A stretch of DNA of 61,945 nucleotides, counting the filler. It is 7 parts of 7 records of this genome, joined end to end, with 100 filler letters (N's around TTAATTAATTAA, not from the genome) between each part and the next. Parts side by side here need not be neighbours in the genome. Positions count along the whole stretch, not along the records: positions 6,145 to 11,794 come from SRR31147125_15868; 6 more parts are not named here. One strand, written 5' to 3'. Positions within the stretch are counted from its first letter, which is position 1. Each line of letters starts with the position of its first letter. Of the stretch, positions 1,389 to 11,794 are shown one piece after another. The translations under genes were made by a program, and so were the position numbers. The notes beneath the pieces were generated by a model that saw nothing but the letters and a program-made list of their open reading frames with translations, ran no database searches and was not told the origin of the DNA.

Positions 1389-3608
1389 ATGAAATTATTT
1401 TCGAACGTTCGTGGTGATTTCCTTGGCGGTTTTACGACCTCTGTTGTTGCTTTGCCCTTGTCCATTGCATTCGGTGTGGCAGCTCTGGCTCCTCTTGGAC
1501 CTGAATATATAGCTCAGGGTGCTCTGGCCGGTCTTTATGCTTCCATTATTGCCGGTGCGCTTGCCAGTTTGTTTGGAGGGACGCAAACCCAGATATCCGG
1601 ACCTACGGCTCCCATGTCCGTTGTTGTGACGTCCGTCATTGTAAAATTAATGAAAGATCCAGAGATCACACAAATCGGATCAAGTCCTGCTGAAGTCATT
1701 TTATTGATTGTGGCTGTTACAATTGTCTGTGGAGGCCTGTTTCAGATTTTGCTGGGACTCATTGGAGGCGGAAAGCTGATTAAATTTATCCCGTATCCTG
1801 TTGTAGCCGGTTTTATGAATGGTATCGCCGTGATTATTTTTCTGTCACAATTAAGGCTGTTTGTCGGTGCTGACAAGTCAGCCAGTCTTGCATCTCTGTT
1901 TACTGGCCAGACACCCATACGACTGGAAATCATTATTGTTGGTGTAGCTACGATCCTGGCCTTTATTCTTGCCACTCGTTTTATAAAAGCCATTCCTGGC
2001 GCTCTGGTTGGATTGGCAGTAGGCGTTTTAACCTATTTTATCATTGGCAAACTAGCTTTTCCTGAATTTTTACAATTGCAGGGGAACTCTTTAATTGTTG
2101 GTCCTATACCCAGTGCTATTCCAACTCCAAAGCAGCTGTTTACCTTTTTTCAACTTGTTGGCGACATACCGCCGTCAAAGTGGAGTTTTGTTGTCGTTCC
2201 GGCTATGACACTCGGTATTCTGGCGGCCATAGATACCCTACTTACATCTGTTGTCGTGGACATGGTGACAAAAACCAAACACAAAAGTAACAAGGAACTG
2301 ATCGGGCAGGGGATTGGTAATATAGGTTCGGCTCTTTTTGGCGGATTGCCGGCAGCCGGCTCCACTGCTGTTACTATGGTGAATGTGAATGCCGGAGGTC
2401 GGACCCCCCTCTCCGGCTGCGCTAAAAGTCTGGCTGTTTTACTTGTTGTTCTGGTTCTTGGCAAATTTGTTCAATGGATCCCCATGGCCGTTCTGGCCGG
2501 TATCCTCATCGTTACGGCGGTGAAAATGGTGGATTATGAAAGTATAAATTTGTTTAAGAAAAAAACTGCTTTTGAAAATCTGTTCATCGTCTTTTCTGTC
2601 ACCATTATCACGGTTAGTGTCGATATTATGATTGCTGTAGGAATCGGTCTGGTCATAGCTTCCTTCCTGTTTGTAAAAGAACAAATAGGAAAGACGATTG
2701 TTCGACGCAAGTACACTGGAAATCTGGTCCATTCAAAAAGAGTACGCAGTCGCGAAGCCATGTCTATTCTGGAGGAAAAAGGTCACTCGATTACAGTCTA
2801 TGAATTGAGTGGTTCTCTCTTTTTTGGTACGTGTGACAAACTGTTTGCTGAGGTTGAAAAGGATCTGGACAGTATGTGTATTATTTTTGATCTCAAACGG
2901 GTGAGTACGATTGATCTTACCGGCGCTCAACTTATAAGACAGATTGTTGATCGTATTCATGATAAGGGCAATTGTCTGTTGCTCTCATACCTGAATATCA
3001 GTGGAAATCGCGACAAGGAGCGTTTGCAACGATTTATGGAGGATATGGAAATACCACAGTTGGTCGGCCAGGAACATATTTTCCCTGATACGGATCGTGC
3101 ACTGGAATGGGCTGAAAATGCTCTTATCCATAGAACCATGGTTGCAACGCAACAAAAGCAAGGCTTGCTTGCAGTTGAAGACCTGGCTGTACTAAAAGAC
3201 CTGTCTGCTGATCAGCTTGCTCATGTACGCCAGCATATCCAGTCCAAAACCTTTCAGAAAGGAGATATCATTTTTAAGGAAGGGGATCCGGGTGATGGTA
3301 TCTATTTTATTCAATCCGGTTATGTAAGTGTTTTGGCTGGAATGGATCATGGTGGTAATAGTCATCGTTTGGTAACTTTTGCTGAAGGTGTGTTCTTTGG
3401 AGATATGGCTATTTTGGAAGGGCAGCCTCGTTCTGCTACGGTTCGGGCAGAGGCAGAGACCCATCTTTTGTTTATCTCTAAAGAAGATTTCCAACATTTA
3501 ACCGATAGCGAGCCCCTGCTTGCCGCGCGCTTGCTGAACGGGATCGCGAGAGAATTGTCGTATCGATTAAGAGTCACAAATGCAGAAGTAAGGACTCTGG
3601 CTGAATAG
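1389..3608 (+). CDS. SulP/SLC26 anion transporter with STAS and C-terminal cyclic-nucleotide-binding domains
   Basis: GDFLGG..VALPLSIAFG, ISGPTA, NKELIGQGIGN, STAS (LFFG, DLKRVSTIDLTG), cNMP motif FFGDMAILEGQPRSATVRA; start placed at the ATG after AGGAG (1376-1380). Confidence 0.92.
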   Translation: MKLFSNVRGDFLGGFTTSVVALPLSIAFGVAALAPLGPEYIAQGALAGLYASIIAGALASLFGGTQTQISGPTAPMSVVVTSVIVKLMKDPEITQIGSSPAEVILLIVAVTIVCGGLFQILLGLIGGGKLIKFIPYPVVAGFMNGIAVIIFLSQLRLFVGADKSASLASLFTGQTPIRLEIIIVGVATILAFILATRFIKAIPGALVGLAVGVLTYFIIGKLAFPEFLQLQGNSLIVGPIPSAIPTPKQLFTFFQLVGDIPPSKWSFVVVPAMTLGILAAIDTLLTSVVVDMVTKTKHKSNKELIGQGIGNIGSALFGGLPAAGSTAVTMVNVNAGGRTPLSGCAKSLAVLLVVLVLGKFVQWIPMAVLAGILIVTAVKMVDYESINLFKKKTAFENLFIVFSVTIITVSVDIMIAVGIGLVIASFLFVKEQIGKTIVRRKYTGNLVHSKRVRSREAMSILEEKGHSITVYELSGSLFFGTCDKLFAEVEKDLDSMCIIFDLKRVSTIDLTGAQLIRQIVDRIHDKGNCLLLSYLNISGNRDKERLQRFMEDMEIPQLVGQEHIFPDTDRALEWAENALIHRTMVATQQKQGLLAVEDLAVLKDLSADQLAHVRQHIQSKTFQKGDIIFKEGDPGDGIYFIQSGYVSVLAGMDHGGNSHRLVTFAEGVFFGDMAILEGQPRSATVRAEAETHLLFISKEDFQHLTDSEPLLAARLLNGIARELSYRLRVTNAEVRTLAE

Positions 3609-3646
3609 AGACGTGCTGAGGTATATTGCTTAAAGGACTGTTTATA

Positions 3647-5074
3647 ATGAAAACCTCTAATCCCGATAGACGGAAATTTTTGAAAATATGTGGCTGTCTT
3701 TCCGCCTCGATGCTGCTGGCATCCGGTTTTTCATGTCAAAAGAACCGCTCGCGAAAGCCGAATATTATTTTTATTCTTGTGGATGATTTAGGGTGGAAAG
3801 ATGTGGGTTTTATGGGGAGCCGTTTTTACGAGACTCCCAATATCGACAAGCTTGCCAGTCAGGGTATGGTATTTACCAATGCCTATGCCAATGCGCCAAA
3901 CTGTGCACCTACGCGTGCCTGTTTGTTATCCGGCCAGTATTCACCACGACACGGCGTTTATACTGTTGCCAGTTCAGAACGGGGAAAAGCGCGATTTCGC
4001 AAACTGGTTCCTATAAAAAATACCACTACATTGTCCTCTGATATTACAACCATAGCGGAAGCTTTAAATTCGTCCGGGTATGTGAGTGCCAGTATTGGTA
4101 AATGGCATCTGGGTAACGATCCTGAAAGTGGACCTGTTGGTCAGGGATTTGATGTTAATATTGGCGGAACTCATGCAGGTTCTCCAAAAAGTTATTTTAG
4201 CCCATATAAAAATGATATGCTTTCGGATGGTCCGGAGGGCGAATTCCTGACCGACAGATTGACAGATGAAGCATTAGGATTTATTGAGCATCATCGTGAT
4301 AACCCCTTTTTCCTTTACCTGCCTCATTATGCCGTTCACACACCGATACAGGCCAAAAAGGAGATTATAAAAAAATATCAGAATAAAAAAAGTGATAACG
4401 GACAAAATAATCCTGTTTATGCGGCTATGATAGAAAGTACGGATCAGGGAGTTGGCAGGATTTTAACGAAACTGGAAGAATTAAAGCTGACGGACAATAC
4501 AATTATATTCTTTTTTTCGGATAATGGTGGATATGGTCCTGTAACGACAATGGAGCCTTTACGTGGTTCAAAAGGTATGTTGTATGAAGGAGGAATTCGT
4601 GTGCCGATGGTCGTTAAATGGCCTGAAAAAATCGCACCCGGTTCCAGGTCCGACAAGCCGGTAATCGGCATCGATTTTTATCCTACGATTTTACAGATGA
4701 CTGGTGTTCAAAAAAGACCGGATCAAATCCTGGATGGTGAAAGTTTAGTGCCATTAATGACAAAGCAGGAGACTCTGAAAAGATCTCTTTACTGGCATTT
4801 TCCAGCCTATTTACAGGCTTTTAAAGGCATGAAAGGTACCTGGCGAACAACACCAGCCGGAGCTATTCGGCAGGGGGACTGGAAGTTAATCGAATTCTTC
4901 GAGGATGGACGGTTAGAGCTTTACAATTTGAAACAGGATATCGGCGAGTCAGAAAATATAGCTAAAAAATATCCTGATAAAGTAAAATCCATGCACCAGG
5001 ATCTTGTGGCATGGCGAGAATCTATCAAGGCACCTGTTCCAACTGAAAAAAATCCCTTATATAACCCTGAATAG
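3647..5074 (+). CDS. Sulfatase (S1, Cys-type), Tat-exported lipoprotein
   Basis: PNIIFILVDDLGW, CAPTR (CxPxR), GKWHLG, SDNG; twin-arginine DRRKFLK and lipobox-like GFSC. Confidence 0.93.
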   Translation: MKTSNPDRRKFLKICGCLSASMLLASGFSCQKNRSRKPNIIFILVDDLGWKDVGFMGSRFYETPNIDKLASQGMVFTNAYANAPNCAPTRACLLSGQYSPRHGVYTVASSERGKARFRKLVPIKNTTTLSSDITTIAEALNSSGYVSASIGKWHLGNDPESGPVGQGFDVNIGGTHAGSPKSYFSPYKNDMLSDGPEGEFLTDRLTDEALGFIEHHRDNPFFLYLPHYAVHTPIQAKKEIIKKYQNKKSDNGQNNPVYAAMIESTDQGVGRILTKLEELKLTDNTIIFFFSDNGGYGPVTTMEPLRGSKGMLYEGGIRVPMVVKWPEKIAPGSRSDKPVIGIDFYPTILQMTGVQKRPDQILDGESLVPLMTKQETLKRSLYWHFPAYLQAFKGMKGTWRTTPAGAIRQGDWKLIEFFEDGRLELYNLKQDIGESENIAKKYPDKVKSMHQDLVAWRESIKAPVPTEKNPLYNPE

Positions 5075-5222: not shown

Positions 5223-5876
5223 ATGCGACGATATGATTGGTTACTTTTAGTTCCAATTTTCATTGGTGTTATGGCTCTGCAAACAGGACATATTGTTTTG
5301 AAACTTGGTGTTCCGTTCAGTTGCAGCGTGATTTTGTTGCTGGTGTTTAAAAAATCTCTTTGTCAAAATCGTGATCTATTTTTTGTCATTGCTGCATTCC
5401 TCTTTTCCATGCTTGGCGATCATTATCTGTCTAATAAAAGTCACCATGAAATGTATTTTGTTTATGGCATTGCCGCTTTTTTTGTAGCACATTGTGGTTA
5501 TTCCGGATATGCTCTGAGTAATGGGCGGATTCATCGATCGACATTGTTTATTTTACTGCTGATTTTTATTCCTTATTATATTTTTCTTTTGCAGCCAGCT
5601 ATTCAGGTAAGCATTCTTTCCATTTCTGTATTCATCTACCTGCTAATTTCGATCGTTGCTTTGGCACTTGCTATGGGGCTTCATTTGCATGGACCTGAAA
5701 AATATTATTATATCTTTGGAATTTTTCTTATCGTTGTATCCGATACAATTATTTCCTTCAGGGAATTTCTGGAGTTCAGATTATTAACTTTTTTAATTTT
5801 ACCAACTTATTATCTGGCGCATATTTCAATTACTCATTCTCTTCTGCGTAGACACCAAAGTAAACCGGGTGTCTGA
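5223..5876 (+). CDS. YhhN-like membrane protein (lysoplasmalogenase family)
   Basis: Multiple TM helices with FSMLGDHYL, AAFFVAHCGY, VSDTII and PTYYLAH motifs. Confidence 0.75.
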   Translation: MRRYDWLLLVPIFIGVMALQTGHIVLKLGVPFSCSVILLLVFKKSLCQNRDLFFVIAAFLFSMLGDHYLSNKSHHEMYFVYGIAAFFVAHCGYSGYALSNGRIHRSTLFILLLIFIPYYIFLLQPAIQVSILSISVFIYLLISIVALALAMGLHLHGPEKYYYIFGIFLIVVSDTIISFREFLEFRLLTFLILPTYYLAHISITHSLLRRHQSKPGV

Positions 5877-5958
5877 GACGAGTGGTAAAATAATGAATAG
5901 TTTATGAATTTATTAGTGTATTTTAAATTAAATAATTGTTAATCAGCAGGAGGTAAAG

Positions 5959-6043
5959 GTGAACCGGAAAGTAATAAATGTTATTATTATGTTATTCAGC
6001 ACGACACTCTGTTGGAGTCAGGGTAATAATACAGATCAAAAAA
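5959..6043 (+). CDS. 5' fragment of a secreted protein, cut by the contig end
   Basis: AGGAGG RBS, then GTG and a signal-peptide-like sequence (MNRKVINVIIMLFSTTLCWSQ). Confidence 0.5.
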
Positions 6044-6144
6044 ANNNNNNNNNNNNNNNNNNNNNNNNNNNNNNNNNNNNNNNNNNNNTTAATTAATTAA
6101 NNNNNNNNNNNNNNNNNNNNNNNNNNNNNNNNNNNNNNNNNNNN
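6044..6144. other. Artificial contig linker (N-run + TTAATTAATTAA + N-run)
   Basis: Six-frame stop linker; the same linker recurs at 11795-11894, 23692-23791, 41559-41658, 47853-47952 and 56621-56720. Confidence 0.99.
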
Positions 6145-6217
6145 CCAAACGTTTCACCATCGCTCCACTGCGTTCCGCTGGACTCGCTAAAGCTCGCCGG
6201 TGAACTCCACGTTACTA
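6145..6217 (+). other. Integron attC recombination site, partial (R'' cut by contig start)
   Basis: L'' GTTTCACC pairs with L' GGTGAAC with one extra base; internal CGCTCCACTGCGTTCCGCTGGACTCGCTAAAGCTCGC resembles environmental attC sites; ends CAC-GTTA. Confidence 0.7.
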
Positions 6218-6358
6218 TAGCCATCTCGAAGCTCTCTAGTTTTATAAATCTCTAAACCATTACATTATTCCTGTGCAGGTTGTCCAAGGCCGCCTATGTG
6301 ATGGGGTATAATTGAGCAAGGCACTTACGCCCTGAACCCCAACCACAGGAGGTCTACC

Positions 6359-7195
6359 ATGAAAGTCACACAGGCAGTCGATTTCCATCTGCAGTATCAC
6401 CGGGCCAACTCGAAAAAAAATACGGTCAAGACCAGCGAGTTTGTCCTCTCCAGGTTTTCAGCAAAATTCGGCAATCGTGAACTGGCCAGTATCTCGCAGG
6501 AAGAAGTCCTGGATTTCCTTTTGAGCCTGACTAAAGACAACAAACAGGCGACGAAAAGGAATCGCTATTCTGTTCTCTCGGCATTCTACAATTTCAGCAT
6601 CAACACCGGCCTACCATCTCTATCTAACCCCTGCAATACTTCCGTCATAAAGAAAATCTTCAAACGTCCCCCGCCAGTTCAATGGCAGATCGTAGACAAA
6701 GAAACGATTGATGAGATCATTTTCCGAACCACACACAAGCGCAACCGCTTGATGCTTGAACTCATGGCACGGGGCGGCATGAGAGTCGGGGAGGTGTTGA
6801 AGCTGACCCATGATGATGTTCAAGATGATTTTCTGACCATTCAGAATCCGAAAAGTGGAAAACAGGAAGAGCGGGTTTATGTTCCACGGAAAATCCTGGT
6901 AAGGTTAAGTCGGTATGTTCAAGCAGCCGGTATCGATTCACACAACCGGATCTTTCCTATCTCCTATGTTGCTGCATGGTCAATGGTAAAAAAGGCCGGC
7001 AAGCTGGTTGATATAGAACTGAAGCCTCACGACCTGAGACGCCATGCTGCAACTTATGCATCACGTTCAGGTACACCCATAGAGATCGTCAGCAAGGTGA
7101 TATTGCGCCATGCTGATCTCTCCACAACCCAGCGCTACCTCGGCAAGGTCAACGATACGGAGGCCATCAGGTGGATTGAAACACTGTACGGTTAG
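6359..7195 (+). CDS. Tyrosine recombinase/integrase (278 aa)
   Basis: Full catalytic set: GGMRVGE (R), NPKSG (K), HDLR (H-x-x-R), LRH..STTQRY (H, Y); AGGAGG RBS. Confidence 0.93.
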   Translation: MKVTQAVDFHLQYHRANSKKNTVKTSEFVLSRFSAKFGNRELASISQEEVLDFLLSLTKDNKQATKRNRYSVLSAFYNFSINTGLPSLSNPCNTSVIKKIFKRPPPVQWQIVDKETIDEIIFRTTHKRNRLMLELMARGGMRVGEVLKLTHDDVQDDFLTIQNPKSGKQEERVYVPRKILVRLSRYVQAAGIDSHNRIFPISYVAAWSMVKKAGKLVDIELKPHDLRRHAATYASRSGTPIEIVSKVILRHADLSTTQRYLGKVNDTEAIRWIETLYG

Positions 7196-7206
7196 GTGAT
7201 CCACTT

Positions 7207-7229
7207 AGGGCGGGGATGCTCCTCGCCCT
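7207..7229 (+). terminator. GC-rich hairpin after the recombinase (terminator or element-end structure)
   Basis: AGGGCGGGG-ATGCT-CCTCGCCCT stem-loop. Confidence 0.55.
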
Positions 7230-7508
7230 TTATAGCAACAGGAACTATTTCAAATTTCTATAATTCCCAGCTTGTTTGAGGTTACAACGAGCAAGATAAT
7301 GATATCTGATCGTAATGATGACCACCAATTCCCACTACCGACCGCTCACAGGCAATAAGATTTGTCGATTGCAATCTAAAATATACCTGTGATATGCTGA
7401 TTGACAGGATTGGGTCAACCATTATGCAAGAATGCGAAACATATTCTGTTTTGATGTAATCAAGTAAAAACGGACATTTTTTTGCTGACTTTTTCAAAAT
7501 TCTCTTTT

Positions 7509-7586
7509 TCTCTTGCTTATTGAACACCTCCAAAATGATGGATAATTCACTCTTCAAAAAGTGTCCACTAAAACCTTACCACTTCA
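7509..7586 (+). mobile_element. IS3-family right-end remnant
   Basis: Degenerate transposase tail S-L-A-Y-*-T-P (compare SLGYxTP), followed by GTGTCCACTAAAACCTTACCACTTCA, an IS3-type terminal repeat ending in CA. Confidence 0.5.
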
Positions 7587-7632
7587 TTTTCATTCATATC
7601 GAAATTGATATTCTTCGGAGATAAGCAATATT

Positions 7633-8499
7633 ATGTGGAAATATATTCTGGGAGGAGTTCTAAGTGGCATTCTATTCCTTTATCCATTTTTGAATTTTCT
7701 CTCTCACATTGCGTTTGAGGAGGAGTTGGGGCACAACCATACGCTTTTGGATAGTCTTTTTATAGAATTGACTGGGGCCTTTTCTTTGACAAAGATATTC
7801 TGGATTTTTGGGTTCGGATTGTTTGGTGGTATTTTGGGATTCTTATTGTTTAGAGAAAGAGAATTATTCGTCGCATTGCAAAATTCTAGTGAGCAGTACC
7901 GCAGACTCATTATTAATATTCCCGGTATGATTTATAAAGGCAACCCTGACTGGTCCGCAGAAATCAGCGAGAATTGTGAGAAACTGTGTGGGTATCAAGC
8001 CAAGGATTTCATGACTGAAGAAAATGTCTGGGCGAAAATCATTCATCCGGATGACAAGCAACGAGTTTTTAGTGAATCATCCAAAATGATGGAAGAATCG
8101 TTGACTCTAATCCAAGAATACAGAATTTTTACAAAAGATGGAAAGATAAAGTGGGTGCGCGATCATAAGAATTCATCCTTCAATGATGATGGTTCGTTTG
8201 ATGGTGTTGACGGAATCGTCTATGATATCACTGACCACAAAATGGTTGAGGAACAACGGGATAAATTATTATTGGAAACACTAGCAGAAGTTAAAATATT
8301 GCAGGGTCTTCTACCCATTTGCTCACTGTGCAAAAATATCCGTGATGACAAGGGATACTGGACTAAGATCGAATCATATATCCATAAACATTCTGAAGTT
8401 AAATTCAGCCACGGTATTTGTCCAGAATGTGCTATAAAATATTACCCAGATATGGACCTTTATGGCGATAAAGAAAATCAAGGTAAATTATCCAATTAG
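7633..8499 (+). CDS. Membrane-anchored PAS-domain protein with a C-terminal Cys-rich module
   Basis: Two TM segments; PAS (IHPDD, EYRI..DGKIKWVRD, DIT); C-terminal LPICSLCKNIRDDKGYW..FSHGICPEC. Confidence 0.85.
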   Translation: MWKYILGGVLSGILFLYPFLNFLSHIAFEEELGHNHTLLDSLFIELTGAFSLTKIFWIFGFGLFGGILGFLLFRERELFVALQNSSEQYRRLIINIPGMIYKGNPDWSAEISENCEKLCGYQAKDFMTEENVWAKIIHPDDKQRVFSESSKMMEESLTLIQEYRIFTKDGKIKWVRDHKNSSFNDDGSFDGVDGIVYDITDHKMVEEQRDKLLLETLAEVKILQGLLPICSLCKNIRDDKGYWTKIESYIHKHSEVKFSHGICPECAIKYYPDMDLYGDKENQGKLSN

Positions 8500-8792
8500 C
8501 AACATTGCAACGGTCCTTGCAACTCCAGCTTGCTGGATAAAATCTATAATTTAAAAATTGTTTTTCCGGAGCAGTTGGCTTGGTTCCAAGAATTAAATCT
8601 CCCCTGCTAACCTCAACATATAGTGAATGCCTTGAAGCGAAAATGTTTCCTGTTTCTCTTTAGCCCGGTTCGTAAGCTGACGCAAGTCATAGGCAGTCGG
8701 CGGTAGCTGCGGGAGCGGCTGAAAAAGATTGACCGGAATGTAGTTGAGTAATTCGGGTAGTCCGATTGGTCCCAAATTGGTCCGAAAACAGA

Positions 8793-8829
8793 AACAGCCA
8801 CTCAGCTATATTAGCTAAGTGGCTGTTTA
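8793..8829. terminator. Inverted repeat next to the tRNA fragment
   Basis: AAACAGCCACTCAGCTA-TAT-TAGCTAAGTGGCTGTTT, a stem with one mismatch. Confidence 0.65.
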
Positions 8830-8832
8830 AAC

Positions 8833-8857
8833 TGGTCGGGATGAGAGGATTTGAACT
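8833..8857 (-). other. 3' fragment of tRNA-Pro (att-site scar), not a full tRNA
   Basis: Minus strand reads AGTTCAAATCCTCTCATCCCGACCA: T-loop, acceptor 3' strand and CCA of tRNA-Pro; no D or anticodon arm. Confidence 0.8.
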
Positions 8858-9088
8858 TCATCACCGTTGCTTAACTAATTGAAAATATATTATAAAAAAC
8901 TGGGTTGTAATACCTGTGTATAACATCATTATCCCCTTGCTTGCATCTATCGAAGCTATTCAGGAAACATCTGAGGCAACGGTGTAAACAACGTCGAGTA
9001 TCTTCACTTAGGCAAGATCAGTGGTAGATTAGCCTGTGAAGTTGAAAAGTTACCCCGGTATCACTGGTAGGTTCAATACAGTTCCCTT

Positions 9089-9532
9089 TTACAATTCATT
9101 AAAAAACTGAACAAACCACTCCCACCCAAACCTTGTCATTTTCCCCGCAAGTCTACCCGGTACATCTCCTTCAGATTTGTACCTAATATCAACTCCGACA
9201 ATAGGAATATTGTTTGAGATTGCACAATCAATCGCACAAAGAGTCAATGGATCCGTTGAAGTATGGGCTGAGACAATAATCATCACTCCGTCTGCTTTTA
9301 TAATAGCCTGTTCAATAATGGGCTTACACTTGTCTATTTTAAGCCCCTCACGATCAAAAGATCTAAACTCTAATGAAGGGTTCGAGTAAAGTTCCCATCT
9401 ATGTTTTCCATAGATGAGTAAATTCCTATATCGTATATCAGGCTCCGCACACTCCACAAATATTTTTTTATGGTCTCTAGGCGAACTTAGCTTCGATTTA
9501 TGTTTTCCCGTTACAACATTGTGAACGATCAT
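9089..9532 (-). CDS. ThsB/DUF1863-like TIR-fold protein with the catalytic Glu position altered
   Basis: KIFV..D.RYR, IIKADGVMIIVS..T, AI..NIPIVGV and W.W...FFN.L follow the ThsB-like TIR pattern. Confidence 0.6.
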   Translation of the reverse strand: MIVHNVVTGKHKSKLSSPRDHKKIFVECAEPDIRYRNLLIYGKHRWELYSNPSLEFRSFDREGLKIDKCKPIIEQAIIKADGVMIIVSAHTSTDPLTLCAIDCAISNNIPIVGVDIRYKSEGDVPGRLAGKMTRFGWEWFVQFFNEL

Positions 9533-9595
9533 GAGTAACTCGTTTCAGCCGGAGGCTCCATATTATTTCCTTATGGTCATTTTTTTTGTTCGACC

Positions 9596-10762
9596 TTAAA
9601 CATCATAGCGAACAAATTCGTGCGTACAGGGGGTACCGGCAGCAACAAGCATAGCCTTTTGATCAGGCAGCATGATAAACGACCCTAACGACTCAGCTTG
9701 TAATCCCGGTGGCACAGCTGGGTCCGGGTGACGACAAATAGCGTTAGGATACCCTTGGTGGTCGGTCAGTGCACTACCAATGGTCTCGGGTGTGAGTCTT
9801 CCAATCAACCCTGTGGCCAATTCATTCATACGTGCGGCGCGGGCTTGGCTATCTGGAAAGATCATTTGATATCCGTCAACGGCTTGGAAACGCGGAGTTC
9901 TGTAGTTGTTGGCATGAGTTAGAAAGCCGTCACTGGGTAGAAGAACCTCATAATCGGCTAGAGTACTTTCAAAGCAAAGGAGGCCGCCTTTGTCATCTGC
10001 CAACGTGACCGCGACGATTCCTCTGCAGGCTTCTACCAGTATCTGACGAGCCTTATTTATATCAGTCTGTCGCATGGCTCGTGACAGATAGGCAGCCATA
10101 GGAATTTTGGGATTAAGATTAGGTTGCATCGCAGCAACACCATTTAGGCAGCAAGCCAGGCCGGAAGAGTTAATAGTGTATTCACCTATTCCAAGTATGG
10201 GCAGTACTAATTGACGTAATCCATCACTGCGTTTTATGTGTATGAGTGCAAGGGGGCTACCAGTAAACCAATCGATATTTTGTCCCATGATAGATTGACC
10301 GTTTGGAGTTGCCAATCCGGTACCTGCCAGAGTAGTGCACATAGCCGCCAGATTTGAGTTTACAAAAAGTAACTCTAGGCCGCACCGTGTCGTCCACGCT
10401 TCTTCCAGGCTCATCCCTGAACCTTTTGCCTGACCACGGACAAAGGGTTCCAGCTCAGGGTCGAACTGCGTAGCCGCTGGCCACAACTTCATTGCAAATG
10501 CCAGGGCCTCCCTACGTGATGTCCTATGCACATAATTAATCACGGTCAATATTCGGTCCAAGCCTTGGTACATATTGTCGGCTAAGGTTTGCCCCCAGCC
10601 CTCTCCAACCTCAGATGGCGTACCTGTCAACTCAATTAATGGCATTCTTATATTCTTTTTCATTGATGAATCTCCCCAAACAGGTTGCACCCAACTCGTT
10701 ATCGCGGCCATCCCAGCCAGTTGTAAGAATTGCCTTCTGTTGAAGTTGTAATTGGGCATCAT
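9596..10762 (-). CDS. C45 family Ntn-hydrolase (acyl-CoA:6-APA acyltransferase-like) with Tat signal
   Basis: NRRQFLQ Tat motif; autocleavage CTT, GQNIDW, INSSGL..CLN, LTHANNY, ICRH. Confidence 0.85.
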   Translation of the reverse strand: MMPNYNFNRRQFLQLAGMAAITSWVQPVWGDSSMKKNIRMPLIELTGTPSEVGEGWGQTLADNMYQGLDRILTVINYVHRTSRREALAFAMKLWPAATQFDPELEPFVRGQAKGSGMSLEEAWTTRCGLELLFVNSNLAAMCTTLAGTGLATPNGQSIMGQNIDWFTGSPLALIHIKRSDGLRQLVLPILGIGEYTINSSGLACCLNGVAAMQPNLNPKIPMAAYLSRAMRQTDINKARQILVEACRGIVAVTLADDKGGLLCFESTLADYEVLLPSDGFLTHANNYRTPRFQAVDGYQMIFPDSQARAARMNELATGLIGRLTPETIGSALTDHQGYPNAICRHPDPAVPPGLQAESLGSFIMLPDQKAMLVAAGTPCTHEFVRYDV

Positions 10763-10834
10763 TTTGTCTGTCCTTGATTTTGTGTAAATTATTTCTTGGT
10801 ATGTCTTCTTCTTGCTTGGCTTGTAGACAAAAAC

Positions 10835-10863
10835 ATGTTACATACATACTGTATGTATGTCAA
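10835..10863 (-). promoter_or_regulatory. Sigma70 promoter of the C45 gene overlapped by a perfect palindromic operator
   Basis: TTGACA (10863-10858), 17 bp, TAACAT (10840-10835); palindrome ACATACATAC-T-GTATGTATGT at 10840-10860. Confidence 0.8.
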
Positions 10864-10872
10864 GGGGATTAA

Positions 10873-11478
10873 ATGGAGAAAATGGAACAGTCAGAGAATA
10901 AGCAGGAAAAGCGTAGTCGACTCACCACCAGGCGACTTCTCACCGAAGCAAAGCGCTTGTTTGCTGAGCATGGCTTTGCGGATGTTTCTGCTGAGCAGAT
11001 CGTAGCAGCTGCCGGAGTTACCCGAGGAGCCCTGTATCACCATTATGATGGTAAAAAAGGGCTATTCCGCGCGGTACTTGAACTGGTTCAAGCTGAAATC
11101 GAACAACGGGTGAAAACAGCAGTAGAGAGAGTCCAAGATCCTATGGAGATGCTTATTGCCGGAAATGACGAGTTTTTGGCCGCATGCCTTGATCCTGGTT
11201 TGCAACGTATTTTGCTTGTTGATGCACCGGCAGTTCTGGGCTGGGAAGAATGGCGTGCGGTTGACGAAGACCACGTACAAAGGAAATATCGTGCCTTTTT
11301 AGCCCAACTAATCGAAGATGGAGTGCTTAAACCTTACCCTGTTGATGCTCTGGCCCATATCATATCAGGTGCAGCCAATGAGGCCGCTTTCTGGGCGGCT
11401 CGGACAGACGACCCGGAATTTGCCCTGGCTGAAGCTCAAATAACTATGGCTGAGATGATCCGATCATTAAGTACCTGA
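10873..11478 (+). CDS. TetR/AcrR family regulator
   Basis: LFAEHGFADVSAEQIVAAAGVTRGALYHHY helix-turn-helix. Confidence 0.95.
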   Translation: MEKMEQSENKQEKRSRLTTRRLLTEAKRLFAEHGFADVSAEQIVAAAGVTRGALYHHYDGKKGLFRAVLELVQAEIEQRVKTAVERVQDPMEMLIAGNDEFLAACLDPGLQRILLVDAPAVLGWEEWRAVDEDHVQRKYRAFLAQLIEDGVLKPYPVDALAHIISGAANEAAFWAARTDDPEFALAEAQITMAEMIRSLST

Positions 11479-11495
11479 CCTGAAAATCGACAACA

Positions 11496-11794
11496 ATGAT
11501 ACGATCAGAACAGGAAACCATGAAACGAGAAAGCAAAAAATTCACCTTAAGGCCAGCCACTGTTCATGGCATAGACTGTATTTATGATCTGAGAGTCAAA
11601 AGCATGAAACCTTTATTTGAAGGAACTTTGGGATGGAATGAGGCCAAAGAGTTCGAAAAGGCTACTGATGAACTGGCAAATGCAGAGATAGTAATGATCG
11701 GGAATAGGAGAGTCGGGGTCATTAAGGTGATCCCCGGAGCGGATGAATTACATTTTCATCAAATACAAATTCTTCCAAAATATCAAAAAGGGGG
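11496..11794 (+). CDS. GNAT family acetyltransferase, 3' truncated
   Basis: FTLRPAT.. and IQILPKYQKG (start of motif A). Confidence 0.75.

Follow-up and report, generated by a model that had tools for sequence, protein, structure and literature searches.

The DNA examined here is a window of 61,945 nt (the whole stretch analysed, positions 1-61945), a pseudomolecule in which 7 contigs are joined by 6 identical 100-nt linkers. The GC content of the contigs across the window ranges from 0.30 to 0.44, and therefore the 7 contigs may not share one organism. One contig of 5650 bp (6145-11794, with 6145 as its first base) opens with part of an integron attC site and carries a gene for a tyrosine recombinase shortly behind it. 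We read this region as three joined things: an attC end cut by the contig start, a 57-bp docking arm, and a 977-bp module that would be autonomous. Its features are listed below.

6045..6144, no strand: artificial contig-joining linker (44 N + TTAATTAATTAA + 44 N); the DNA leftward of it is another contig.
6145..6217, + strand: 3' part of an integron attC (last R'' base, spacer, L'', loop, L', TCCAC, R').
6211..6224, + strand: arm 14-mer GTTACTATAGCCAT, a degenerate form of GTTAACATTGCCAA with 4 mismatches to the consensus; it lies exactly 43 nt from the core, and the attC R' box makes up its first 7 bases.
6225..6267, + strand: 43-nt arm spacer with a TCGAAG box at 6226-6231; the 43-nt geometry is fixed in relatives, and hairpin potential is absent (z = 0.40).
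6268..7244, + strand: recombinase module, a repeated and putatively exchangeable unit of 977 bp (blastn to 79 loci; ends of paralogues and metagenome contigs).
6268..6274, + strand: left core TTCCTGT, putative crossover site (flank alignments, paralogue ends and contig ends).
6307..6312, + strand: -10 box TATAAT of the unit's own promoter (GTAT(A/C)AT conserved in 24 aligned leaders).
6347..6352, + strand: Shine-Dalgarno sequence AGGAGG (CAGGAGG nearly invariant in the 24 leaders).
6359..7195, + strand: 278-aa simple (Xer-like) tyrosine recombinase (Pfam Phage_integrase, 1.4e-19; catalytic residues complete).
7207..7229, + strand: terminator-like hairpin followed by TTTAT (-10 kcal/mol, z = -2.33).
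7238..7244, + strand: right core ACAGGAA, which repeats the left core in inverted orientation (flank alignments, paralogue ends and contig ends).
7245..7300, + strand: right flank with a degenerate arm only; GGTTACAACGAGCAAG at 7280-7295 is off register, and at the registers where an arm is expected no 14-mer has fewer than 7 mismatches.

A first-pass annotation of this DNA had pointed to an attC-like site ending in CACGTTA, and the segment 6145-6217 is indeed a real integron attC. L'' (GTTTCACC, 6151-6158), read as GTT-T-CACC, pairs with L' GGTGAAC (6199-6205) and leaves one extra, extrahelical T; the spacers are 5 nt long, with TCCAC (6206-6210) standing before R' GTTACTA (6211-6217). Compared with the consensus GTTRRRY, R' agrees at GTTA and departs in the remainder, the box doubling as the start of the arm 14-mer. 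Since the contig starts at 6145, only the last base of the R'' box is present and everything upstream is unrelated to the attC. Two family-specific covariance models of our own, built from 5 (R1) and 36 (R2) related attC sites, both recognise this attC, with 41.5 and 65.9 bits, respectively. BLAST with 6145-6222 found matches in 43 of the 151 genomes of the family to which genome G001 belongs, often several per genome and some of them 350-1000 nt apart. The aligned relatives show the full canonical layout (RYYYAAC, 5 nt, GTTTCACC ... GGTGAAC, 5 nt, GTTRRRY), and integron integrases (IntI) scoring above the TIGR02249 cut-off were found in all 5 related genomes tested. In the likely source run, X1, read depth was 40.7 over 6145-6196 compared with 5.7 over the recombinase gene (approximately 7-fold), and other X1 contigs bear the same attC and continue upstream of it as R'' ACATAAC CAGC. 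The contig thus breaks at 6145 because the attC is a repeat, and repeats of this kind break assemblies. Rfam scans of 5800-7700 and 7245-11794 returned nothing at the gathering score and no attC match, it not being known whether Rfam has an attC family.

Relatives of the recombinase unit were collected by scanning species-representative genomes; 183 of 227 pattern hits were confirmed and 79 loci were kept, nearly all of them in Desulfocapsaceae/Desulfobulbaceae and several per genome. DNA similarity of these loci to the window sets in at 6265-6356 and runs out at approximately 7185-7258 (blastn); in flank alignments the unit opens with TTCCTGT (6268) on the left and closes with AGCAACAGGAA (7244) on the right. 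Copies within one genome end at the same cores (L003/L051, 98.0% identity, 2900-3892; L007/L014, 97.2%; L062/L073, 95.7%). An X3 metagenome contig begins matching at 6268, and X2 and X3 contigs diverge past 7244, the X3 continuation being arm-type sequence. Because paralogues and near-identical metagenome contigs stop at the cores, the unit was set as 6268-7244. The element ends proposed in the annotation, 6215 and 7232, do not agree with these alignments, in which conservation runs from 6268 to 7244 and so past 7232. The TTA or TATAGC repeats, put forward there as ends or as a target duplication, could not be maintained either, since both TATAGC copies lie inside conserved blocks. The right copy (7231-7236) is part of the conserved unit and hence not a target duplication, locus L001 having the same ...TTTATAGCAACAGGAA, right TATAGC included, beside an unrelated flank; the left copy (6216-6221) is inside the conserved arm 14-mer. 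No target duplication was found at the unit ends in the flank alignments.

The terminal hairpin proposed earlier was recovered (7207-7229), its position being kept in relatives with another sequence in one subgroup. The structured leader was not: its fold gave z = 0.11 and 24 relatives showed no consensus structure. The -10 box at 6307-6312 was not reported by a generic promoter scan. Protein matches to the recombinase numbered 14, 5, and 2 in three genomes, many with stops or split by frameshifts, and many unit copies are found on short contigs, a usual sign of repeats. An insertion sequence (IS) has discrete ends with inverted repeats, several copies, a transposase of a recognised family and usually a target duplication; the unit shows discrete ends, inverted cores of 7 bp and multiple copies, and no target duplication. 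In outline, the notion of an IS-sized, single-gene tyrosine-recombinase unit was borne out, the unit being multi-copy, often decayed, found in varied contexts and adjoining an attC. We know of no recognised IS family that uses a plain Xer-like tyrosine recombinase of this kind. The unit represents a widespread multi-copy family in sulfate-reducing sediment bacteria, apparently undescribed. A literature search found no description of such a family, related recombinases being possibly listed in the supplements of PMC8138268.

The recombinase gene is the sole open reading frame (ORF) of at least 100 aa in the unit. The 278-aa product, predicted to be intact in the annotation and found to be so, has the two-domain simple build (Phage_integrase catalytic domain and SAM-like core-binding domain), with R142, K168, H224, R227, H251, and Y260 in place. 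Its scores fell below the cut-offs of the curated families XerA (NF040815; 116 versus 220 bits), XerD (68 versus 330), and XerC (55 versus 335). The IntI model (TIGR02249) gave 51.2 bits versus a cut-off of 265, matching only model positions 14-180 of 315, in the N-terminal half, and identity to an IntI of a related genome (G153) was 28% over 125 aa. In keeping with the annotation, in which it was said to lack the size and insert typical of IntI, the enzyme is not an IntI; nor is it a Xer equivalog. Among solved structures, an archaeal XerA-like protein comes closest (PDB 4a8e, E = 6e-16). Public annotations of the relatives read merely "site-specific integrase" or "XerD". Related protein clusters numbered 4171 at E <= 1e-10, and a plasmid collection held no protein match to the recombinase at E <= 1e-20. 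Inside the gene, a piece of 35-45 nt (6874-6918, encoding ...KSGKQEERVYVPRK...) reached a depth of 106 in X1 versus 5-8 around it and matches several other X1 contigs as well as L056:2042-2076; it is probably common to other recombinase paralogues or another repeat.

Between attC and unit lies the docking arm (6211-6267, 57 bp), consisting of a GTTAAYATTGCCA-like 14-mer that overlaps R' and a further 43 nt. Two arm types were recognised in the relatives: type A is TTGGCAATGTTAAC + 29 nt + core, and in type B the core comes first, followed by 43 nt and the 14-mer of type A. On the opposite side of the unit each type may stand reverse-complemented (rcA, rcB). Arms were called only at the expected registers and with at most 4 mismatches in the 14-mer, for which the chance expectation is approximately 0.5% per flank. 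By this test, an arm was present at 24 of 65 left unit ends (17 of type A at 29 nt and 7 rcB at 43 nt, the window included) and at 27 of 66 right ends (23 of type B at 43 nt and 4 rcA at 29 nt). All four arrangements (A..B, rcB..rcA, A..rcA, and rcB..B) were seen; the window has rcB on the left and no recognisable right arm. Units 98% identical in sequence stand behind unlike arm types, rcB in L003 and A in L051.

Arms also occur apart from the recombinase gene. A 74-nt type A arm query had 33, 14, 10, 5, and 2 matches in five genomes, the dispersed matches adjoining unrelated, ordinary genes, and the arms are a repeat family independent of the recombinase gene. A metagenome scan for ATTGCCA-NN-TCGAAG followed after a gap of 33-39 nt by TTCCTGT yielded 107 stretches with arm and core, in 84 of which the gap was exactly 36 nt. 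On genome contigs, the pattern GGTGAACNNNNNGTTNNNATTGCCA proved too short for scanning, giving 120 stretches that were nearly all chance matches in unrelated phyla, with one real junction (L189). Arms and arm-to-arm linkers were also considered as attC-like hairpins; this was ruled out, as they show no single-strand fold (z = 0.2 to 0.5). The attI regions of six intI loci did not carry the arm 14-mer. Tandem arms with no module between them were observed in L041 (1321-1470) and L004 (740-900), with a period of approximately 93 nt (14-mer, 29 nt, core, 43 nt).

In the window, the arm 14-mer and the attC R' box share one and the same GTT, and this overlap recurs. The 14-mer follows in register (at most 4 mismatches) in 9 of 39 attC matches, one of which (L110:2549) was discounted as it lacks ATTGCCA, and in 6 of the 9 fusions a core is found at the expected distance. 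Behind that core lies the unit in the window, a module termed S1 in L132, a pair of recombinase genes in L098, and other sequence elsewhere. An R2 attC (E < 0.01) was present within approximately 3 kb of the recombinase at 5 of 80 loci and was fused to an arm at 2 of the 80 (the window and L077). The partner that recurs in fusions with the attC R' box is the docking arm, not the recombinase unit. The annotation had named enrichment of homologues beside attC sites as a check. Direct contact with an attC is exceptional among the relatives, and R2 found 4 attC sites in 441 kb near recombinase loci (window excluded) versus 44 in approximately 30 Mb genome-wide, a roughly 6-fold higher density that is only a rough figure, since thresholds differ and the genome-wide count is a lower bound. 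Given the 44 per approximately 30 Mb found genome-wide, the unit neighbourhoods are only modestly enriched. In one locus (L017) the unit is 6.4 kb from intI, and in L022/L117 a copy lies between weak attC matches on one strand.

In the metagenomes, at least 11 arm junctions follow an attC-like site among 73 with enough upstream sequence, a weak estimate for which 73 is not a strict denominator: the count joins 7 non-linker junctions that passed a geometry rule (73 scored) with 4 more found by R2 (97 loci), and these sets overlap without being identical. The crude geometry rule for generic attC accepted 8 of the 73 junctions versus 2.6% of shuffles and misses sites that the covariance model finds, so that the true share of attC-fused arms is only bounded; by eye it looks larger. 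Minimum-energy hairpin folding was tried for calling generic attC upstream of arms and was unreliable. G as the first base of the 14-mer was tried as a mark of IntI crossover; it was found in 1 of 27 linker and 26 of 48 other junctions, but also in "type II linker" contexts without attC, and was not used. The tie to integrons runs via the docking arm fused to the attC R' box and not via insertion into the attC core.

To survey what docking sites hold, 14 of the metagenome stretches (chance matches, coding DNA) were dropped and duplicates removed, leaving 84 non-redundant junctions. The recombinase unit lies behind the core in 4 of them (2 forward, 2 reverse) and a two-recombinase module in at least 4. 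Another 20 hold mini-modules that an inverted core closes off within 42-137 nt, some of these mini-modules being plainly remnants of the unit's 3' end; 6 hold S1-like modules, 27 hold other sequence, and 23 did not extend far enough to be classed. The two-recombinase module encodes tyrosine recombinases of approximately 395 aa and 271 aa and has terminal repeats (GTATACGTAACAAAA) and a promoter of its own. It abuts the same 7-bp cores and arms (L084 5360-9662, L055 3-1932, L083 13815-15663, L057 4136-6041, and L098), and in L098 and L189 it is preceded by attC and arm. At 5 loci the unit is within a few kb of the 395-aa and 271-aa pair, whose position and orientation vary. In L084 (6264-8302, genome G002), two ORFs with, by eye, the look of IS21 IstA/IstB lie between the module's recombinase genes.

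Two further conserved segments were observed at docking sites. The S1 module (L115-L134, e.g. L116 1991-2208) is approximately 190 nt long, lies between two direct cores and has at its end a type A arm with 33 matches in genome G152; its conserved boxes are CCTAACAACA and TTATCCATGAGAGGTTAC. Many of the matches to the 74-nt arm query are part of S1 copies. As a structured RNA it was ruled out (consensus energy -0.49 kcal/mol, no compensatory pairs). The S2 leader (L117, L118, L119, and L122, all in G152) is a conserved segment of at least 200 nt that likewise terminates in a type A arm. Behind this leader come unrelated ORFs without a Pfam family, each then followed by an attC match, as in a cassette array.

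The anatomy of the region, the boundaries, copy number, decay and two orientations of the unit, the geometry of the arms and their fusions to attC are all shown by the sequences. From these observations we consider it probable, if by no wide measure, that the region belongs to a recombinase-driven system of invertible or exchangeable modules that is partly coupled to integrons. Units of the family would sit between two convergent arms of fixed geometry, the 7-bp cores serving as crossover points and the arms as accessory or binding sites. We infer that the unit's enzyme cuts at the cores, acting on double-stranded core sites, since this Xer-like recombinase is the only enzyme that the unit carries; the path of the reaction set out here is of the same standing. 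If the two inverted cores recombined with each other, the unit would flip; if they recombined with the cores of other docking sites, modules would be swapped or inserted, in the manner of recombinase-mediated cassette exchange or a shufflon. The outcome would be a recombinase unit and non-autonomous mini-modules spread among docking sites, many of them joined to attC R' ends. Inverted sites do flank the unit, and forward and reverse units stand behind the same arm type. Both orientations behind one arm type, together with the 98%-identical units behind unlike arms, are what inversion and double-crossover exchange are expected to produce.

Several observations weigh against such a system. No recombinant joints, circle, empty site or flipped copy in the same population was seen among the contigs, which were the only material and are silent on activity. 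Inverted cores alone cannot excise the unit, so that new copies would need another route, which might be a Tn916-like circle or exchange with an incoming copy. In one subgroup the left core is TTCCTGA and the right core CAGTAG, and simple inversion is doubtful there because the cores are unlike. At our thresholds, 41 of the 65 left ends and 39 of the 66 right ends lack a recognisable arm, the right flank of the window included. The left junction has one conserved arm beside the core, whereas a canonical Xer-type site has two inverted arms. Finally, the module of 395 aa and 271 aa could be the acting enzyme instead.

A more far-reaching and only tentative extension, which we hold to be distinctly less probable, is a second, double-strand cassette system nested in and around integrons, in which modules would flip and swap between docking sites and the two systems, this one and IntI, would seed each other. 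A docking site would then comprise the 14-mer, a fixed spacer and the 7-bp core, and its outer box (YTTAACATTGCCA) would be used by integron integrases as a partner for crossover between G and TT. With IntI recombining attC and the GTTAACATTGCCA box, arms would ride at cassette starts and cassettes would land beside arms.

That the unit is instead a domesticated inversion switch appears unlikely. Such a module would flip in place, toggling neighbouring genes by phase variation, and would never move. The inverted cores and the occurrence of both orientations relative to the arms would suit it, and the TTGCCA-type box in the arm could, judging from its letters, be a promoter element. Set against this are the up to 14 matches per genome, many of them broken, the near-identical units in unrelated flanks, the unrelated and ordinary neighbouring genes, and the many copies that lie on short contigs as repeats do.

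A miniature Tn916-like tyrosine transposon is improbable to the same degree. Staggered cuts at its ends would generate a circle (ACAGGAA + 6-7 nt + TTCCTGT) that integrates at arm-core targets; the terminal inverted 7-mers would make a classical two-arm core site in this circle, and specific targets with no target duplication are in keeping with it. But no circle junction was seen among the contigs, and the N-terminal arm-binding domain of Tn916-type integrases (PMC8138268) is absent from the 278-aa enzyme.

Slightly less credible still is an ordinary integron gene cassette with a recombinase as cargo, moved by IntI, which would recombine attC with attC or with attI. In its favour, the first bases of the arm are exactly the R' GTT at which cassettes begin; the IntI of all 5 related genomes, the L017 copy near intI, the L022/L117 copy between weak same-strand attC matches and the attC density near recombinase loci, higher by a rough count, point the same way. 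However, the segment has no attC of its own to close it: R2 found none in 7245-11794, where, R2 being family-specific, a divergent attC might escape detection. What highly similar copies have in common is the core-to-core unit and not an R'-to-attC segment, 75 of 80 loci have no attC within approximately 3 kb at E < 0.01 by our own model, and the arms do not fold.

Transposition of a 1-kb element (6215-7232) into the attC crossover GTTA with duplication of TTA or TATAGC, as the annotation had supposed, is very improbable: the attC is real and ends at GTTA, and deleting 6215-7232 does give CACGTTATAGC (the model's empty site being CACGTTATAGCAAC and its circle junction joining 7232 to 6215), but those coordinates are not the unit ends, as conservation in 79 loci and in paralogues begins at 6268 and ends at 7244, the right TATAGC belongs to the conserved end of the unit and recurs in L001 with an unrelated flank, and the unit starts 57 bp after the G of R', behind a separate conserved arm (6211-6267) that occurs without the recombinase too.

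On the right of the unit, no orthologous empty site for the flank was found in the 151 genomes, in which matches were limited to short conserved pieces. The gene that comes next codes for a PAS protein. Upstream of it, an intergenic stretch of approximately 85 nt (7503-7590) has 80-89% identity in about 10 other genomes of the family and no Rfam match, and may be a conserved regulatory element or small RNA. Another conserved intergenic stretch, of approximately 95 nt (8763-8859), has 80-86% identity in at least 4 genomes and likewise no Rfam match. The cysteine-rich C-terminal part of the PAS protein (8287-8476) is 75% identical in DNA to G001:C1:1188554-1188720, which directly adjoins the G001 intI; many other genomes match too, and the stretch is probably a common signalling-protein domain.

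Compared with known systems, the region shares with integron cassettes a real attC in front, an arm that begins at the crossover between G and TT, diverse modules behind a conserved site, and relatives that have IntI and cassette arrays. It differs in that the enzyme is not IntI, the arms and cores have no single-strand fold, and the unit ends are inverted 7-bp cores, the left one 57 bp from R'. With IS1111-attC elements and group IIC-attC introns, the known attC-targeting elements (PMC3001079, PMC11187229), the region shares a small, mobile-looking unit next to an attC. Those elements insert within the attC and have a DEDD transposase, or an intron RNA with reverse transcriptase; the present unit has neither enzyme and sits outside the attC. 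It belongs to neither group, its only ORF of at least 100 aa being the recombinase and no Rfam match reaching the gathering score in 5800-7700.

In the sfx sites of shufflons, a 7-bp core adjoins a single conserved arm. The system described here resembles shufflons (Rci/sfx) and recombinase-mediated cassette exchange in having a tyrosine recombinase, one arm with a 7-bp core, and inverted sites that flank segments found in both orientations. Unlike in shufflons, the flipped segment contains the recombinase gene, the sites are scattered through the genome in tens of copies, and the segments encode no alternative protein ends. REPtrons, in which a RAYT gene lies between inverted REPs, offer another likeness, the enzyme gene being bracketed by inverted copies of a dispersed, mosaic intergenic repeat (PMC2817692 and PMC8266576). 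RAYTs are HUH single-strand enzymes acting on hairpins, whereas here a tyrosine recombinase, unstructured sites and a multi-copy gene are found. By analogy, the invertible and exchangeable modules would work most like a shufflon or natural cassette exchange, and their genomic habit resembles that of REPtrons.

A RIT element consists of three adjacent overlapping tyrosine recombinase genes in approximately 3.5 kb (PMC3414803). Simple tyrosine recombinases linked to mobility are common to both, and 5 loci have the unit near the 395-aa and 271-aa pair, but the window unit is a single gene in 977 bp and not a RIT element. The Xer recombinases (XerA/XerC/XerD, with dif/pdif modules) are the closest sequence relatives and have the same two-domain simple build; the present enzyme differs in scoring below the curated cut-offs, and where a Xer recombinase is encoded by a single-copy housekeeping gene, this one has many, often broken gene copies that ride on a discrete repeat.

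Should the nested cassette system prove true, no IS-sized mobile element family before this one would have been driven by a simple tyrosine recombinase, and recombinase-mediated cassette exchange would have a natural analogue. The sharply defined ends and the cognate sites of rigid geometry make the unit family directly testable in vitro, and an enzyme that exchanges between inverted 7-bp cores could serve as a compact recombination tool. The fusion of arms to attC R' boxes suggests cross-talk of integron recombination with a second site-specific system, which bears on how cassette arrays are built and reshuffled in environmental bacteria.

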